Shown here: piece by piece, positions 4,305-41,146 of the stretch
Position numbering within the stretch: the first letter of the stretch is position 1
How the letters are laid out: every line of letters begins with the position of its first letter
Source: a virus
Lineage: Duplodnaviria; Heunggongvirae; Uroviricota; Caudoviricetes
DNA: 42,581 nucleotides
Direction: 5' to 3' (one strand)
IMG/VR virus record: IMGVR_UViG_3300045988_019953
Coordinates: 1 to 42,581 of that record
The notes under the pieces: generated by a model
What the model saw: only the letters and a program-made list of their open reading frames with translations
Database searches by the model: none
What the model was told of the DNA's origin: nothing
Program-made: the position numbers and the translations under genes

Positions 4305-4333
4305 TTGACTTTTCACTAAAAATGTGCTAAGCT
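4305..4333 (+). promoter_or_regulatory. Sigma70-like promoter TTGACT-17-TAAGCT driving conserved element copy A
   Basis: -35 at 4305-4310, -10 at 4328-4333; 28 of 29 positions identical to promoter at 15639-15667. Confidence 0.55.
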
Positions 4334-4339
4334 CCACCT

Positions 4340-4560
4340 GAGCTTGTGAAGTATGAACAAGCGACCGTGTCACGGCAGGAAACGGAGCGGGGCGTTAGCC
4401 CTGAGTGTAGTTTCGCTGACGCGTCCGGAAGGCCACTGGTCTATTGCAAAAATCCCCTAAGTTACATAAGTAACTAATTTTCCTTAAGTTTCTTAATGTG
4501 CTGTAGATTCGCAACCGTAAAAATGTAACGATTATTGGGCAGGCTTAAAGCCTGCCCTTT
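4340..4560 (+). ncRNA. Candidate structured small RNA, copy A
   Basis: Promoter-to-terminator unit with no ORF; about 115-nt core conserved with copy B, with two compensatory stem substitutions. Confidence 0.35.
4537..4560 (+). terminator. Rho-independent terminator (GGGCAGGCT-TAA-AGCCTGCCC plus TTT)
   Basis: 9-bp GC-rich stem followed by a short T tract. Confidence 0.55.
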
Positions 4561-4630: not shown

Positions 4631-4659
4631 TTGCACACCCCAATATAATAGGATACTAT
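4631..4659 (+). promoter_or_regulatory. Early promoter TTGCAC-17-TACTAT with dyad AATAG-N4-CTATT (4647-4660)
   Basis: Hexamers with 17-bp spacer; 23-mer nearly identical to those at 15540 and 24940; conserved leader TCACTTATCGAAACGAG. Confidence 0.55.
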
Positions 4660-4693
4660 TCACTTATCGAAACGAGACTGAGGAGTGAGGGTT

Positions 4694-5858: not shown

Positions 5859-5887
5859 TTGCACACTAAGATAGAATAGGCTACTAT
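5859..5887 (+). promoter_or_regulatory. Early promoter TTGCAC-17-TACTAT with dyad AATAG-N4-CTATT (5875-5888)
   Basis: Same architecture as 4631-4659; followed by RBS GAGGAGAG and ATG at 5919. Confidence 0.5.
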
Positions 5888-5918
5888 TCATTTACACGAA
5901 CAAGAGGAGAGACAGAAG

Positions 5919-7051: not shown

Positions 7052-7360
7052 TTGGATAAATTTACTGAAACAGTGACGGGGTGGCTTCTGGCTGCCGCTC
7101 TAGCTGGTGGGGTAATCGGTCTACGACAACATAAGTCCGTTATTTCCGGCCCTATCGACGGCTTCTGCTTTATCGCAACTGGCTTCACTTGCGCCGTATT
7201 TGGCGCACCTCTCGCATCTCAATGGTTCGGTATCACGGGCGAGCGCGAGATAGCCGGGTTGGGCTTCATTATTGCTATTCTCTGGATGCCTATCTATTCC
7301 CGTCTCTCCGGTATCGTCGCCGGAGAATACATCGCGCGTCGAGGAGGCACAGATGAATGA
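7052..7360 (+). CDS. Putative holin (multi-TM membrane protein)
   Basis: 102 aa with several hydrophobic segments; TTG start 6 nt after GGAGGA; directly upstream of endolysin. Confidence 0.5.
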   Translation: MDKFTETVTGWLLAAALAGGVIGLRQHKSVISGPIDGFCFIATGFTCAVFGAPLASQWFGITGEREIAGLGFIIAILWMPIYSRLSGIVAGEYIARRGGTDE

Positions 7361-7625
7361 ATTATTCTGGTTCGGCGGTATGCTGGCAATCGGAGGCACA
7401 TCGCTGTTTAATGTGTATCACCCCGGCGTGGACGACGGTCTATTTGGCCGGGTGCTCTATATCCTGACCACTATCGTCTGTGCCGCCGGGTGTATCCACC
7501 TGTTACAGGGCAGCATGTCACCGACGCTGCCGGAGACATTAATCGCATTAGTTGCGCTGCGACAGATTCGTCAGGCGTGGCTGTCATACGGAGGACATAA
7601 GCGTGTCTCGAAACATTTCAGATAA
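7353..7625 (+). CDS. Second small membrane protein (holin/antiholin-like)
   Basis: ATG 7353 after GAGGAGG, overlapping upstream stop; two hydrophobic segments; track lists a longer 7272 start. Confidence 0.45.
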   Translation: MNELFWFGGMLAIGGTSLFNVYHPGVDDGLFGRVLYILTTIVCAAGCIHLLQGSMSPTLPETLIALVALRQIRQAWLSYGGHKRVSKHFR

Positions 7626-8106
7626 TGGATTGCATTTTACCGCCGCGTTTGAGGGATTCCGCGGAACTGCATACAAAGCAACAAAGAACGAAAAATACTG
7701 GACTATAGGCTGGGGTCATACCGGGCCGGATGTGTATGAAGGACAGAAGATTACTGAGGGTCAGGGGCTACTGTTGCTGAACCGTGATATGCGGTGGGCT
7801 GTGAAAGCAGTCGACGAGGTAGCACACCCCTCACTGACCCAAGCCCAGTTTGATGCCGTTGTCGACCTGGTGTTCAACGCAGGACCCGGCGTTATCGCGG
7901 CCAACACCGGAACCGGTAAGGCACTACGGCAGGGAGACATCTCCACCTTACGGCATAAGTTGAGCCAGTTCATCAACCAACGCAACCCGAAAACGGGCAA
8001 ACTCGAGCCTGTTCTCGGCCTGCGTCGCCGGACCGCCGGGCGTCTGGCGCTGTTCGACGGTAAACCGTGGCAAGAGGCTGAGGCTATCGGGAGGGCTGTT
8101 AAATGA
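7603..8106 (+). CDS. Endolysin, lysozyme-like (GH24-type) muramidase
   Basis: Motif EGFRGTAYKATKNEKYWTIGWGHTG; likely GTG start 7603 after GGAGGA rather than track ATG 7552. Confidence 0.8.
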   Translation: MSRNISDNGLHFTAAFEGFRGTAYKATKNEKYWTIGWGHTGPDVYEGQKITEGQGLLLLNRDMRWAVKAVDEVAHPSLTQAQFDAVVDLVFNAGPGVIAANTGTGKALRQGDISTLRHKLSQFINQRNPKTGKLEPVLGLRRRTAGRLALFDGKPWQEAEAIGRAVK

Positions 8107-8313: not shown

Positions 8314-8342
8314 TTGACTATTACCATTGACCCTATTATATT
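8314..8342 (+). promoter_or_regulatory. Promoter TTGACT-17-TATATT with leader similar to other early promoters
   Basis: Hexamers read in sequence; leader CCATCGACAACGAG resembles TTATCGAAACGAG. Confidence 0.4.
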
Positions 8343-15246: not shown

Positions 15247-15272
15247 AAAGGCCCCTTTCGGGGCCTTAGTTT
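15247..15272. terminator. Bidirectional rho-independent terminator (AAGGCCCC-TTTC-GGGGCCTT)
   Basis: 8-bp GC stem with A/T-rich flanks on both sides; between convergent genes. Confidence 0.65.
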
Positions 15273-15517
15273 TATCGCACTCTCATAAATAGCTTACCTT
15301 TGCGCTGTAACAAATCCATGCCAACAGCACCTTCACCAGATTTGTTCGGGCGGCGCATTAAACTAAAGTTCCATACTCTAGCTTTTGAAGCATCTTTCGC
15401 GTTGCACACCCAAAGTCTACCGCTTTCTCTTAGGTCAAATAAGTCCGATATACTGAAATTATTAACTGGTATGAATCCGCTAATGAACTCACGTTCACAA
15501 CTAGGTAATTCTTGCAT
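15272..15517 (-). CDS. Hypothetical protein, paralog B of 4876-5166
   Basis: 81 aa; ATG 15515-15517 with GGAGGG RBS; about 80 percent identical by eye to paralog A. Confidence 0.6.
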   Translation of the reverse strand: MQELPSCEREFISGFIPVNNFSISDLFDLRESGRLWVCNAKDASKARVWNFSLMRRPNKSGEGAVGMDLLQRKGKLFMRVR

Positions 15518-15543
15518 ACACCCTCCTCGTTTCGATGTAATGA

Positions 15544-15572
15544 ATAGTACCCTATTATATTGGTGTCTGCAA
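15544..15572 (-). promoter_or_regulatory. Early-type promoter on minus strand (TTGCAG-17-TACTAT) with dyad AATAG-N4-CTATT (15543-15556)
   Basis: 23-mer identical to 24940-24962 and a 1-mismatch reverse complement of 4639-4661; leader matches early promoter leaders. Confidence 0.55.
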
Positions 15573-15638: not shown

Positions 15639-15667
15639 TTGACTTTTCACTAAAAATATGCTAAGCT
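15639..15667 (+). promoter_or_regulatory. Sigma70-like promoter TTGACT-17-TAAGCT driving conserved element copy B
   Basis: 28 of 29 positions identical to promoter at 4305-4333. Confidence 0.55.
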
Positions 15668-15673
15668 CCACCT

Positions 15674-15870
15674 GAGCTTGTGAAGTATGAACAAGCGACC
15701 GCGGCGCGGGCAGGTAACGGAGCGGGACGTAAGTCCTGAGTGTAGTTACGCTGACGCGTTCGGAAGGGCCATACTCTATTGCTTGTGTAAAAAGTAACTG
15801 ATTTACTGAGATTGCGCCGTTTCTATGTTTAAATGATAAGGACTAGCGCCCCGCTTTACGGCGGGGCTTT
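15674..15870 (+). ncRNA. Candidate structured small RNA, copy B
   Basis: Conserved core shared with 4340-4450, bounded by promoter and terminator; no ORF. Confidence 0.35.
15848..15870 (+). terminator. Rho-independent terminator (GCCCCGC-TTTACG-GCGGGGC plus TTT)
   Basis: 7-bp GC stem followed by a short T tract; ends copy B just before the Rz-like gene. Confidence 0.5.
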
Positions 15871-15891
15871 ACTTATCGAGAAAGGAGAAAC

Positions 15892-16278
15892 ATGAATCTT
15901 AAAGCAACTGTCGTAGCGGGAGCATGTTTCATCATCCTGGCTTACACACACGGCATCTACCAGTACCGCAGCGGCTGGGCCGAAGGCCGGGCTAATCTCG
16001 TTTCGCAGCAACAGCAGAAAGCACAGGCTGAGTTAGCGAAGAAAACACAACGGCAGCAGCAGGATGAATCGAAGGCAGCCGCCGCTGACAACGAAGGCAA
16101 GACGAAATCAGAGGTGATTACCCGTGAAGTCGTTAAGTACATCAAAACGCCTGGCCGCAGCGTGTGCACTTTCGATGATGCTCGCGTCCTGCTCAAGTCC
16201 CGCGCCGTCACAAATGCCAACTCCATCCCCGGATATGACGATGATGCAGCCGCCGTGCAAACTGGCCCCGCCAAGTAG
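15892..16278 (+). CDS. i-spanin (Rz-like)
   Basis: 128 aa; N-terminal TM (VVAGACFIILAY), Q-rich coiled coil, periplasmic C-terminus; contains an out-of-frame lipoprotein ORF. Confidence 0.7.
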   Translation: MNLKATVVAGACFIILAYTHGIYQYRSGWAEGRANLVSQQQQKAQAELAKKTQRQQQDESKAAAADNEGKTKSEVITREVVKYIKTPGRSVCTFDDARVLLKSRAVTNANSIPGYDDDAAAVQTGPAK

Positions 16279-16387
16279 CGATGCTGACGAGGATTTAGCT
16301 ATCGACGTTCAGAATGCTGAATGCGTACGGCAACTGCGCTTGAAGGTGTTCATGTTGCAGGATTACGTGAGGAATATTCTGGAATAG
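16124..16387 (+). CDS. o-spanin (Rz1-like lipoprotein), overlapped with i-spanin in another frame
   Basis: GTG start after GAGGTG; signal peptide with lipobox LASC; proline-rich mature region. Confidence 0.7.
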   Translation: MKSLSTSKRLAAACALSMMLASCSSPAPSQMPTPSPDMTMMQPPCKLAPPSSDADEDLAIDVQNAECVRQLRLKVFMLQDYVRNILE

Positions 16388-16469: not shown

Positions 16470-17171
16470 ATGAATCGTTTTTTACGTTATCCGTTCCAGG
16501 AAGAAGCTGGAGCAGAAGATAAAGCCGGTGGTGGTGACGCACCAAAAATGTTCACCGCTGAAGAAGTTCAGGCGCTGATTGAGAAAGAAGTTGCCGGGCT
16601 TAAGGCTAATCAGGAAGCATTGCTGGCGGAGAAGAAAGAAGCCGCTCGTAAAGCAAAAGAGGCCGAAGAAGAACGGCAGCGCGCACACCAGGAGGCGTTA
16701 AAAGCCGCTGGTAAGATGGATGAGTTCGAAAAAACGATTCGTAGCCAGTATGACCCGGTGTTAGCTGAGAAAGATGGCCGTATCTCCAAGATGGCAGAGC
16801 GCATCCTCGGCAGCGAACGTAAAGCGGTGTTAGGCTCTTTCGCAGGTGACTTCATCACCCCGGAAGCAGTGGACATTCTTGCGCCGTTCGTTAAGACTGA
16901 GTTCGAAGGCGATGACGTGGTTACTAAGTTTGTTGACGCAGACGGTAACGTAATCACGACTGACCCGGAACAGTTCCGCAAATACCTGCGGGAACACAAA
17001 GCATTTTCGCATTTGATCAAAGCAAATGCAGCTTCCGGCGGCGGGGCTTCCGGTAGTAAAGGCGGCGGGGCCGCACCAGCGTTTAAAGACATGAGTGAAG
17101 CGGAGCGTTTAGCTCTGTATAAATTGAACCCTGCCGAATTTGAACGGCAACTTAAAGCCCTGAGGAAATAA
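16470..17171 (+). CDS. Scaffolding protein
   Basis: ATG 16470 after AGGGGA; charged alpha-helical E/K/A-rich sequence; immediately upstream of major capsid gene. Confidence 0.6.
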   Translation: MNRFLRYPFQEEAGAEDKAGGGDAPKMFTAEEVQALIEKEVAGLKANQEALLAEKKEAARKAKEAEEERQRAHQEALKAAGKMDEFEKTIRSQYDPVLAEKDGRISKMAERILGSERKAVLGSFAGDFITPEAVDILAPFVKTEFEGDDVVTKFVDADGNVITTDPEQFRKYLREHKAFSHLIKANAASGGGASGSKGGGAAPAFKDMSEAERLALYKLNPAEFERQLKALRK

Positions 17172-17173
17172 TA

Positions 17174-18223
17174 ATGGCAATTACCACTATCGGCGATATC
17201 GTAACTGGCAACATCCCGGTCCTGGCGTCTTACATGACCGAGGACCCGGTAGAAAAAACCGCGTTCTTCCAGTCTGGTATTCTGGCCCCGACCCCATACG
17301 CTGCCGAGATTGCCCGCGGCCCGTCCAATATCGCTAATATTCCTTTCTGGAAAGCGATTGATACTTCTATTGAGCCTAACTACTCGAACGACGTATACCA
17401 GGACATCGCCACCCCGCGTAACGTGCAAACCGGCGAGATGATGGCGCGCGTTGCGTACCTGAACGAAGGCTTCGGTCAGGCGGATTTGACCGTTGAACTG
17501 ACCAGCCAGAACCCGCTGCAATCTGTGGCTTCTCGCCTGGATAACTTTTGGCAGCGCCAGGCACAACGCCGCCTTATTGCTACCGCGCTCGGTCTGTACA
17601 ACGACAACGTAGCCGCTACCGACGCATACCACGAGCAGAATGACATGGTAATCGACGTGTCTGCTACTCTGGGCTTCGATGCAGGCGCGTTCATCGACGC
17701 TACCCAGACTATGGGCGATGCGCTGATGGGCAACGGCGGTGAAGTGCTGGGCGCTATCGCGATGCACAGCTTCGTTTATGCACAGGCCCGTAAGCAGCAG
17801 CTTATTGACTTCATCAAAGACGCTGACAACGACACCCTGTTCGCCACCTACCAGGGCTACCGCGTGATTGTTGACGACAGCATGACCGTAGTTGGCACAG
17901 GCGCAAGCCGCAAGTTCATTTCCATCATCTTCGGCAACGGCGCTATCGGTTACGGTGAAGGTTCTCCGTCCAACCCACTGGAATACGAGCGCGAAGCGTC
18001 TCGCGGCAACGGTGGTGGCGTAGAAACCCTGTGGACTCGCAAGACCTGGTTGCTGCACCCACTGGGCTACAGCTTCACCAGCGCGGTAATCACCGGCAAC
18101 GGCACCGAGACTGTCGCACGCTCTGCTTCCTGGCAGGACCTGGCGAATGCCTCCAACTGGAACCGTGTTGTTGAACGTAAGCACGTACCGATTGCCTTCC
18201 TGGTAACTGGTGTCGGGGCTTAA
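17174..18223 (+). CDS. Major capsid protein
   Basis: 349 aa after scaffold gene, followed by a strong terminator; assignment by position and size. Confidence 0.7.
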   Translation: MAITTIGDIVTGNIPVLASYMTEDPVEKTAFFQSGILAPTPYAAEIARGPSNIANIPFWKAIDTSIEPNYSNDVYQDIATPRNVQTGEMMARVAYLNEGFGQADLTVELTSQNPLQSVASRLDNFWQRQAQRRLIATALGLYNDNVAATDAYHEQNDMVIDVSATLGFDAGAFIDATQTMGDALMGNGGEVLGAIAMHSFVYAQARKQQLIDFIKDADNDTLFATYQGYRVIVDDSMTVVGTGASRKFISIIFGNGAIGYGEGSPSNPLEYEREASRGNGGGVETLWTRKTWLLHPLGYSFTSAVITGNGTETVARSASWQDLANASNWNRVVERKHVPIAFLVTGVGA

Positions 18224-18239
18224 GGTTAAGATATAATCG

Positions 18240-18263
18240 AGAGGGACTTCGGTCCCTCTTTTC
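18240..18263 (+). terminator. Rho-independent terminator (AGAGGGAC-TTCG-GTCCCTCT plus TTTT)
   Basis: 8-bp stem with UUCG loop and T tract after capsid gene. Confidence 0.7.
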
Positions 18264-18282
18264 ATTTACTAAGAGGTAAATT

Positions 18283-24913: not shown

Positions 24914-24943
24914 TTTAAACCCCTTCATTGTTGGTGTAAGTGA

Positions 24944-40500: not shown

Positions 40501-40519
40501 AGTTAAATTGATTCAGATA

Positions 40520-41146
40520 TTAGCGGCGGCGACGTTCGCGGCGCGGTGCTTCATCTTCTTCGTCGTCTTCCAGGTCATCAACGCTTGCAGCGACTTTAGA
40601 ACCGCCGAACGCTTTACCTTCACCAACGTATTTAATCGCCAGCAGGTTAACACCGAGGACTTTATATTTCTGGCTGAACCAGATTTCGACGCTTACGTTA
40701 GCCACGCAGCCGCTGTAAACCTGTTCGCCTTCAATCTGTTCACCGTCAACGTTGAAGTCCTGCTCTACCTGAGTCTCACCTTTTTTAGAGGTTACAATCA
40801 GCGGCTGTTTCTGTGCCTTCGCTTTGAAGTAGAAGCCTTCCGGGAAGTCTTCAAATGGATTGTCGCGCTCGGCAATGTCTTTAATCGCGCATTTATCCAT
40901 GTGCTTACCTTCGCCGTAGTTGGACTTCATCCATTTCTCGGCAGCGGCTGCGCCTAACGCCTCTTCAACTACAGAGTAAACTGTGTCGTAGAGTGCGTCG
41001 ATTTGAGCATGGTCAGACGGCAGGATAATAGTTGCGCTGTACTGACCTTTAGTGATTGAGCCATCATCGTTTTCACGGTCTTTTTCGCGTTCAAATACGT
41101 TAACCCATGCAGTGTTTACTTTACGCAGATTTAATTTCAGTCCCAT
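40520..41146 (-). CDS. Putative ssDNA-binding / annealing protein (DUF2815-like)
   Basis: 208 aa with acidic tail DDLEDDEEDE; adjacent to exonuclease; family assignment from memory. Confidence 0.45.
   Translation of the reverse strand: MGLKLNLRKVNTAWVNVFEREKDRENDDGSITKGQYSATIILPSDHAQIDALYDTVYSVVEEALGAAAAEKWMKSNYGEGKHMDKCAIKDIAERDNPFEDFPEGFYFKAKAQKQPLIVTSKKGETQVEQDFNVDGEQIEGEQVYSGCVANVSVEIWFSQKYKVLGVNLLAIKYVGEGKAFGGSKVAASVDDLEDDEEDEAPRRERRRR

Follow-up and report, generated by a model that had tools for sequence, protein, structure and literature searches.

An overlapped spanin pair among the head genes of a Kagunavirus genome, and a duplicated promoter-like and leader element ahead of both parts of its lysis set

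On the relationships of its sequence, the window (the whole 42,581-nucleotide stretch of viral DNA analysed here, IMG/VR record IMGVR_UViG_3300045988_019953) is a Kagunavirus genome of the subfamily Guernseyvirinae. Two overlapping plus-strand genes between 15,892 and 16,387 very probably specify its two-component spanin, a member of the 'Jersey' family of overlapped spanins. The assignment is made from family homology and architecture, with no experimental test of any member of that family found in the literature. The pair has already been catalogued, carries GenBank annotation and is treated in published work, and there is nothing new in the spanin genes themselves. The only item that is possibly new lies outside their coordinates, and is a duplicated promoter-like and leader element. 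One copy precedes the spanins and the other the block containing the holin and endolysin genes; no description of the element or its paralog was found in the literature searched and neither had a match in Rfam.

The overlapping genes and their products

The i-spanin gene (15,892-16,278, plus strand; ATG start, 128 aa) is preceded by the Shine-Dalgarno sequence AAGGAG at 15,882-15,887. Within the gene a second such sequence, GAGGTG at 16,111-16,116 (both are sequence readings on the plus strand), stands 7 nt upstream of the GTG with which the o-spanin gene (16,124-16,387, plus strand; 87-aa precursor) starts in the +1 frame. As in other two-component spanins the genes are adjacent, and here they have 155 nt in common (16,124-16,278), in which i-spanin residues 78-128 and o-spanin residues 1-52 are encoded by the same DNA. 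Of the embedded, overlapped and separated classes defined for spanins (PMC6139136), the architecture is the overlapped and not the lambda-type embedded one, since the stop codon of the i-spanin gene comes 109 nt before the end of the o-spanin gene. The term 'embedded-overlap', used in the initial annotation, was wrong in this respect. Its recognition of an overlapped Rz/Rz1-type pair is borne out by the ORFs, the overlap, the lipobox, the homolog alignment and 46 related loci, and the ORFs for a transmembrane protein and, in another frame, a GTG-initiated lipoprotein with the motif LASC are exactly those it described.

The hydrophobic maximum of the i-spanin is at residues 1-17 (Kyte-Doolittle 1.82), where a membrane anchor is called by rule; the remainder of the protein is polar, with many Gln, Ala and Lys residues and a sole Cys, the periplasmic Cys92. 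An AF2 model has a helix from residue 3 to 69 (pLDDT 62-84), the C-terminal half being of low confidence and the overall pLDDT of 55.6 too poor for the model to serve as a fold-search query. A single N-terminal transmembrane domain (by rule) followed by a mainly helical periplasmic domain (by AF2) is the arrangement expected of an i-spanin. Of the coiled-coil protein proposed earlier, the long N-terminal helix stands, with the coiled coil itself no more than plausible at that pLDDT. A search of the PDB with the i-spanin sequence gave no match. Among PHROG profiles it matches phrog_2536, 'Rz-like spanin' (E 2.6e-55), and it is 90-95% identical to annotated Kagunavirus i-spanins, e.g. that of Sciku. 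The Pfam Rz and Rz1 models match neither spanin protein of the window, the only result there being a sub-threshold one to DUF2514 (E 0.016), and a search of Pfam together with NCBIfam gave no significant spanin match for either, so that the pair is identified only via PHROGs and direct homology.

The o-spanin precursor starts with an n-region made basic by K2, K8 and R9, followed by a hydrophobic core and the lipobox L-A-S-C, with Cys23 as the lipobox Cys and Ser, not Asp, at +2; by rule this is a lipoprotein signal. The mature part of 65 aa contains nine Pro, and Cys45 and Cys67. In an AF2 model of the precursor, made from an alignment of homologs, residues 4-21 form a signal-peptide helix, and an unstructured linker rich in Pro leads to a C-terminal helix (54-86) at pLDDT 90-96. 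Its PHROG matches are to phrog_5672, 'Rz-like spanin' (E 3.6e-30), and phrog_1267 (E 3.2e-18). When 22 homologs were compared with Pfam, four matched LysC (P2 Rz1-like) weakly, at best with E 5.7e-05, and two matched the T7 o-spanin family; the window protein itself reached E 0.094 with NCBIfam P2_Rz1. An alternative lipobox at Cys14 (an AAAC/VAAC motif inside the hydrophobic core) was rejected: it would leave only about four hydrophobic residues, and Jersey-type homologs are without the Cys14 motif but keep the lipobox at Cys22/23.

For comparison, 47 IMG/VR loci encoding relatives of the 128-aa protein were fetched, of which 46 were used, one being partial. The o-spanin ORF is in the +1 frame in every one of them. 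In 45 the position of its start codon is constant (GTG in Kagunavirus-type and ATG in several Jersey-type loci), and the length of the overlap is 152-158 nt, again in 45; nearly all loci of the overlapped class keep the o-spanin Shine-Dalgarno, in the form GAGGTG/GAGGTA or GGAGGC. The dual-coding overlap is the least conserved portion of both proteins. Signal peptide identity between the window and Jersey-type phages is down to 22-26%, the lipobox nonetheless being kept in all 46 loci, and over the last 35 residues of the o-spanin, outside the overlap, identity is 80-86%. In the alignment of 22 o-spanin homologs, which extends down to 45% identity, the lipobox Cys is present throughout (shifted by a single column in one sequence). 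Neither Cys45 nor Cys67 varies there, a favorable outcome of the check for conserved periplasmic Cys that the initial annotation had proposed. Cys92 of the i-spanin is present in 46 of 46 loci, and both proteins accordingly have periplasmic Cys suited, as residues, to intermolecular disulfides.

A highly improbable reading is that only the 128-aa membrane protein is functional, and that the +1 ORF is a by-product of composition or encodes a 48-aa ATG-initiated peptide devoid of a signal peptide. Some 25 database protein clusters are 48-aa versions starting at an internal Met-Met, but the 39 codons upstream of that point are open in all 46 loci, and the basic n-region, hydrophobic core and lipobox that they specify persist even at the low signal-peptide identity. 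That the full-length start is a GTG would also favor the shorter peptide, as would the phrog_5672 profile being just 47 positions long, but several Jersey-type phages have ATG at the equivalent position, there is a Shine-Dalgarno 7 nt upstream, and a secreted partner with no signal could not get to the periplasm. The retention of frame, start position, lipobox and Cys despite divergence of the signal peptide argues that the o-spanin ORF specifies a real secreted lipoprotein and is not a chance ORF. The correct o-spanin is then the 87-aa GTG-initiated form and not the 48-aa form generated by many gene callers, and the annotation 'i-spanin/o-spanin' can be transferred to the window genome. Over the 1 kb around the spanins, identity to dozens of E. 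coli phages (Kagunavirus genomes) is about 95%, and most annotated close relatives label the pair 'i-spanin / o-spanin', 'Rz-like spanin' or 'putative spanin'. In Sciku (MK931439) both ORFs are annotated, with equal lengths and the o-spanin in the GTG frame, citing the overlapping spanins of K1G (ADA82248, ADA82249).

A lysis set in two parts

Two holin/antiholin genes lie at 7,052-7,360 and 7,272-7,625 on the plus strand (phrog_2359 holin, E 2.6e-29, and phrog_2508 holin, E 5.4e-32), with a lysozyme-family endolysin gene, also on the plus strand, at 7,552-8,106 as the longest ORF (PF00959, E 2e-25; phrog_7 endolysin, E 2e-38), all three with support from the Sciku annotation. By analogy with the 84-aa and 167-aa genes of Sciku, the second holin probably starts at about 7,371 and the endolysin at about 7,603. 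These matches uphold the earlier placing of holins and lysozyme at 7,052-8,106, about 8 kb from the spanins, the endolysin stop being 7,786 nt from the i-spanin start; no evidence was found for the early status that the initial annotation gave to that region. Between them are terminase, portal, head-morphogenesis and Hoc-like genes. In the window, Sciku and SS3e alike, the holins and endolysin belong to a block of small genes that precedes terminase, and the order head morphogenesis, Hoc-like, spanins, scaffold, major capsid is common to the three. In HK578 the spanin directly follows the head-morphogenesis gene and is itself followed by terminators, while the pair in St162 is of the 'separated' class with reverse-strand genes on either side. 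A contiguous lambda-type lysis cassette is found in none of these five genomes.

In fBC-Eco01, too, the spanin genes (gp11/gp12) are apart from those for holins and endolysin (gp68-70) (PMC9825357), and unlinked spanins have a classical example in T4 (PMC6139136). On the gene maps and homologies a split lysis set is the norm for Kagunavirus and Jerseyvirus, with a further instance in the Dhillonvirus HK578. To call the split uncommon, as had been done, was an overstatement. A tblastn search with the i-spanin found 627 phage records, mostly of Salmonella (363) and Escherichia (210), with the Dhillonvirus phages HK578 and SO-1 among the weakest matches; a position adjacent to head genes recurs in the gene maps of four relatives out of four, and the fBC-Eco01 case in print and the T4 precedent count in the same direction. 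That lysis genes need not cluster, and that spanins may sit among head genes, is already textbook knowledge (T4; the Kongari 2018 survey).

The isolation of the pair from the other lysis genes is pertinent to a different reading, namely that it is a moron-type cassette with another membrane function (superinfection exclusion or receptor blocking, cf. T5 Llp and Cor) inserted at a variable hotspot between head genes. The pair does adjoin a variable insertion hotspot (15,276-15,540), and in St162 the reverse-strand genes on both sides give it the look of an independent cassette, but its presence in all of the fetched loci, and in the hundreds of phage records just mentioned, is unlike that of an accessory moron. 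A membrane anchor and a lipoprotein in overlapping frames with conserved periplasmic Cys is the signature of a spanin, and several homologs are weakly linked by profile to the P2 LysC and T7 o-spanin families. There is also no other spanin candidate in the window, though the hosts are Gram-negative and holins and endolysin are present. This last point is a weak one: the strict rule-based lipoprotein scan of the whole window, which gave no other plausible lipoprotein or spanin, missed the real o-spanin as well, on account of the Cys14 motif. (The matches it did yield were discounted, being segments internal to the holins and an ORF at 40,508-40,957 that overlaps a longer one on the opposite strand.) Altogether a moron cassette is judged highly improbable, and a spanin is the reading carried forward.

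As a spanin, the pair would be expected to act as follows, by extension from general lipoprotein biology and from the lambda Rz/Rz1 and T4 PseT.3/PseT.2 paradigms (PMC6139136). The 128-aa product would be anchored in the inner membrane by its N-terminal transmembrane domain, exposing a largely helical domain of about 100 aa, as read from its sequence, to the periplasm. For the 87-aa product, lipidation at Cys23 and cleavage by signal peptidase II would be followed by delivery to the outer membrane via the Lol pathway, a destination predicted because the +2 residue is Ser and not Asp. Its C-terminal helix would bind the C-terminal part of the i-spanin, homotypic intermolecular disulfides (through Cys92 in one and Cys45/Cys67 in the other) would stabilise the complexes, and these would bridge the periplasm through the peptidoglycan mesh. 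On release of endolysin by the holins and degradation of the wall, the complexes would become mobile and fuse the inner and outer membranes, completing lysis. Transcription of the spanins would be apart from that of the holins and endolysin, and with, or just ahead of, that of the scaffold and capsid genes.

Promoter-like and leader elements ahead of both parts

The spanins lie in a unit bounded by terminator-like hairpins. A bidirectional one at 15,248-15,267, annotated as a terminator in Sciku, closes the unit of terminase, portal, head-morphogenesis and Hoc-like genes. The stretch from 15,276 to 15,540 differs among relatives; in the window it has a minus-strand ORF of 81 aa with a strong Shine-Dalgarno and no PHROG match. 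At 15,639-15,667 on the plus strand is a sequence that reads as a promoter (TTGACT-N17-TAAGCT, with TG before the -10) and probably functions as one; in fBC-Eco01 a promoter is annotated under the homologous stretch. It is followed on the same strand by a GC-rich structured leader RNA of about 200 nt (15,664-15,880), supported by a consensus fold and a covariance model, R1, which scores 263 bits at this locus. At the leader end, 24 nt before the i-spanin ATG, is a plus-strand terminator-like hairpin, GCCCCGC/GCGGGGC followed by TTTACTT (15,848-15,867).

With 22 sequences, the RNAalifold consensus of the leader has 26 pairs, in which 98.4% of cells are paired vs 35-48% when the partners are slid, and eight of the pairs have changes on both sides. 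The terminal hairpin has three different compensatory variants, and AU/UG/GC/CG variation is seen at one pair in an internal hairpin. Rfam had no match to the leader at gathering thresholds, nor any meaningful one at E <= 10. A 36-aa ORF at 15,687-15,797, annotated in Sciku, is rejected as a gene: relatives have frameshifting 1-nt deletions in it or have lost its ATG to an 11-nt deletion, and no PHROG profile matches it. Nor is the high conservation upstream of the spanin to be taken as uniform constraint, which is only partly true of it, the stretch being partly mosaic and absent from many Jersey-type loci. A non-exhaustive search for a Q-like antiterminator found none among five ORFs flanking the lysis genes, all of PHROG families of unknown function.

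The element ahead of the spanins (copy B) has a counterpart, copy A, at 4,305-4,557 on the plus strand, recognised by R1 match and sequence identity: promoter-like sequence 4,305-4,333, leader 4,330-4,500 and terminator-like hairpin 4,537-4,557. It heads the plus-strand block that contains the holins and endolysin. The 29-nt promoter-like sequence occurs exactly twice in the window (at 4,305 and 15,639; none expected), a 129-nt segment of copy A is 91.5% identical to 15,639-15,767 (E 5e-42), and R1 scores 112 bits there (E 1.7e-28). Each copy is made up of an identical sigma-70-like promoter sequence, a covarying multi-hairpin core of about 100 nt and a terminator-like hairpin. With the copy A sequences added, 96.6% of cells are paired and nine pairs are changed on both sides, figures that lean towards structure as this alignment was fitted to the leader model. 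An additional promoter-type motif, CCAATATAATAGGATACTATTCA, is present at 4,640-4,662 in copy A, between hairpin and first gene, and corresponds to the 'phage promoter' consensus reported for fBC-Eco01. Copy B has no motif of this type between hairpin and i-spanin.

Among relatives, Sciku and two IMG/VR Kagunaviruses (L079, L059) have copy A at the equivalent locus in a more diverged form (63-74 bits), and in most Kagunaviruses it is only about 75% identical to copy A of the window. The latter, which is common to phage ST20, looks to have been partly homogenised with copy B. SS3e has only copy B together with the terminator region of copy A, no copy A core being recognisable, and R1 found neither leader copy in HK578 or St162. 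A pattern scan of IMG/VR gave one match per contig and no second, the match being at the copy B locus in the 11 contigs on which R1 was run.

The block with holins and endolysin and the spanins are thus both, as judged from sequence, downstream of homologous promoter-leader-hairpin elements. Since the promoter-like 29 nt are identical and the leaders ahead of both homologous, this points, if anything, to related control of the two, and not to the different transcriptional control supposed in the initial annotation. Antitermination by the putL/putR RNAs of phage HK022, and the attenuated leader of lambda in the pR'-6S RNA-tR' arrangement, are the relevant parallels. By analogy a leader acting in cis could be a factor-independent antiterminator, as in the first, or an attenuated leader, as in the second. 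That it is a cis-acting regulatory RNA which gates read-through both to the spanin and head genes and to the holin-endolysin block, and so coordinates the two halves of lysis, is an idea we consider rather unlikely. Alternatively both leaders may be phage small RNAs that stand on their own, each about 200 nt long, the spanins being expressed only by leak-through. Regulation of read-through, if it occurs, would explain the timing of the two halves of the split lysis set and would add a new family of phage RNAs.

Comparison with known spanin systems

Like the pair in the window, lambda Rz/Rz1 consists of an N-terminally anchored inner-membrane protein and an outer-membrane lipoprotein specified in the +1 frame of the same DNA, with periplasmic Cys in both proteins and a presumed role in the last step of lysis. 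In lambda, Rz1 is wholly embedded in Rz and immediately follows S and R within a single late operon, whereas in the window the last 109 nt of the o-spanin gene lie outside the i-spanin gene, and 7.8 kb separate the pair from the holins and endolysin. Lambda Rz1 is proline-rich and largely unstructured, in contrast to the confident C-terminal helix that AF2 gives the window o-spanin. By analogy the window pair would work as Rz/Rz1 does, but it is outside the Rz/Rz1 sequence family, with neither the embedded gene nor the profile match of that family proper, and outside the embedded class.

The spanins of T4, PseT.3/PseT.2, are also unlinked to holin (t) and endolysin (e), and a C-terminal helix is predicted for their o-spanin (PMC6139136). 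They are, however, of the 'separated' class, with no overlap, and no sequence similarity of the window proteins to them was detected. P2 LysB/LysC (Pfam PF23793 LysC, NCBIfam P2_Rz1) shares the overlapped class with the window pair, but the P2 spanin genes are within a lysis cassette and the match to the LysC profile is far under its curated cut-off.

The closest system is the Jersey family, the largest of the overlapped class (Kongari et al. 2018, BMC Bioinformatics, PMC6139136), whose members include Jersey, K1G, K1H, K1ind1-3, SETP3, SS3e, HK578 and SO-1. In phage Jersey the overlap is 155 bp, and the o-spanin of the family has a constant Cys45 and Cys67 and a conserved second helix (PMC6139136); the same length of overlap, the same two invariant Cys and a C-terminal helix at 54-86 are found in the window. 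Homology to the family extends to both proteins, by PHROG matches and by pairwise identities: the i-spanin is 92% and the o-spanin 91% identical to the Sciku pair (QEG06881/QEG06882), the i-spanins of K1ind2 and SS3e are 93% and 64% identical to that of the window, and the o-spanin of K1H 86%. Gene placement in the family, as in Sciku, is that of the window, between head-decoration and scaffold genes. Nothing material distinguishes the window pair from the family, the differences being point substitutions and what the variable stretch ahead of the pair contains.

A conserved leader ahead of the spanin genes and its second copy

The i-spanin gene is preceded (15639-15880) by a promoter-like sequence, TTGACT-N17-TAAGCT, and then by a leader RNA, conserved and about 200 nt long, that closes with a terminator-like hairpin 24 nt short of the i-spanin ATG. 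Covariation of its consensus structure is clear: the 26 pairs, both sides of which have changed at 8 of them, are 98.4% paired as against 35–48% in slid controls. No Rfam family matches this leader.

Within the leader is a 36-aa ORF (15687-15797), which in the annotated Kagunavirus relative Sciku is gp007, a hypothetical protein. Its candidacy as a gene was rejected, with 1-nt frameshifting deletions occurring in relatives and the ATG being lost to an 11-nt deletion in Jersey-type phages; there is also no match to it in PHROG. From such sequence comparisons it is probably not a gene, and what is conserved in this interval is the RNA structure and not the ORF.

The 29-nt promoter-like sequence and the leader recur at 4305-4557, at the head of the plus-strand block that holds the holins and endolysin; this second copy has a separate terminator-like hairpin (4537-4557). 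It has 91.5% identity to the spanin-proximal leader over 129 nt, and a model score of 112 bits. This copy is common to phage ST20, and at the equivalent locus Sciku and two IMG/VR Kagunaviruses (L059 and L079) have diverged copies. The copy in the window and ST20 looks to have been partly homogenised with the spanin-proximal one.

A recurrent promoter-type motif and a variable hotspot

A different, 23-nt motif, CCAATATAATAGGGTACTATTCA, which includes a perfect TATAAT and points to adjacent genes, is present at 4640-4662 (plus strand), 15541-15563 and 24941-24963 (both minus), with weaker copies near 1045-1061, 5875-5892 and 8330-8342. It is the published PHIRE-predicted ‘phage promoter’ consensus of the related phage fBC-Eco01, tgAATAGTa-ccTATTat-T, which the fBC-Eco01 paper ascribed to a phage-encoded RNA polymerase; an RNA polymerase gene is absent from the annotations of the relatives examined.

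Between the terminator of the Hoc-like gene and the conserved leader is a variable insertion hotspot (15276-15540), whose content differs from relative to relative. The insert in the window is common to very few phages, with at least 80% coverage of the stretch in only 4 of 186 matching records, Kagunavirus LM08P2 included, plus one further related locus (L020). It carries a minus-strand 81-aa ORF (15272-15517) that has a strong Shine-Dalgarno sequence and is without a PHROG match.

Extent of the o-spanin and its variant in relatives

The conserved form of the o-spanin is the GTG-initiated one of 87 aa. Judging by protein database matches, the sole form given by many gene callers is a 48-aa product from an internal Met-Met (MMQPPCK..., 16244-16387) that is without the signal peptide and lipobox, and phrog_5672 (47 positions) appears to have been built from such truncated calls. 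Simple lipobox scans are misled by a further sequence resembling a lipobox, AAAC or VAAC (Cys14; residues 11-14, 16154-16165), within the signal peptide's hydrophobic core. Present in Kagunavirus o-spanins and missing from most Jersey-type homologs, it is probably just a Cys of that core. A minus-strand 551-aa ORF (16610-18265), lying opposite the genes for the scaffold and major capsid proteins, is most likely a functionless shadow ORF.

A ‘separated’ variant of the same spanin family, in L036 (IMG/VR 3300045988_013393) and St162 (L052:25782-26373), has an i-spanin of 118 aa and an o-spanin of 79–81 aa that overlap by only 8–14 nt, with an unrelated signal peptide; in St162 the pair has reverse-strand genes on either side. 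This variant is the counterpart of the FSL_SP-031 case in Kongari et al. (PMC6139136).
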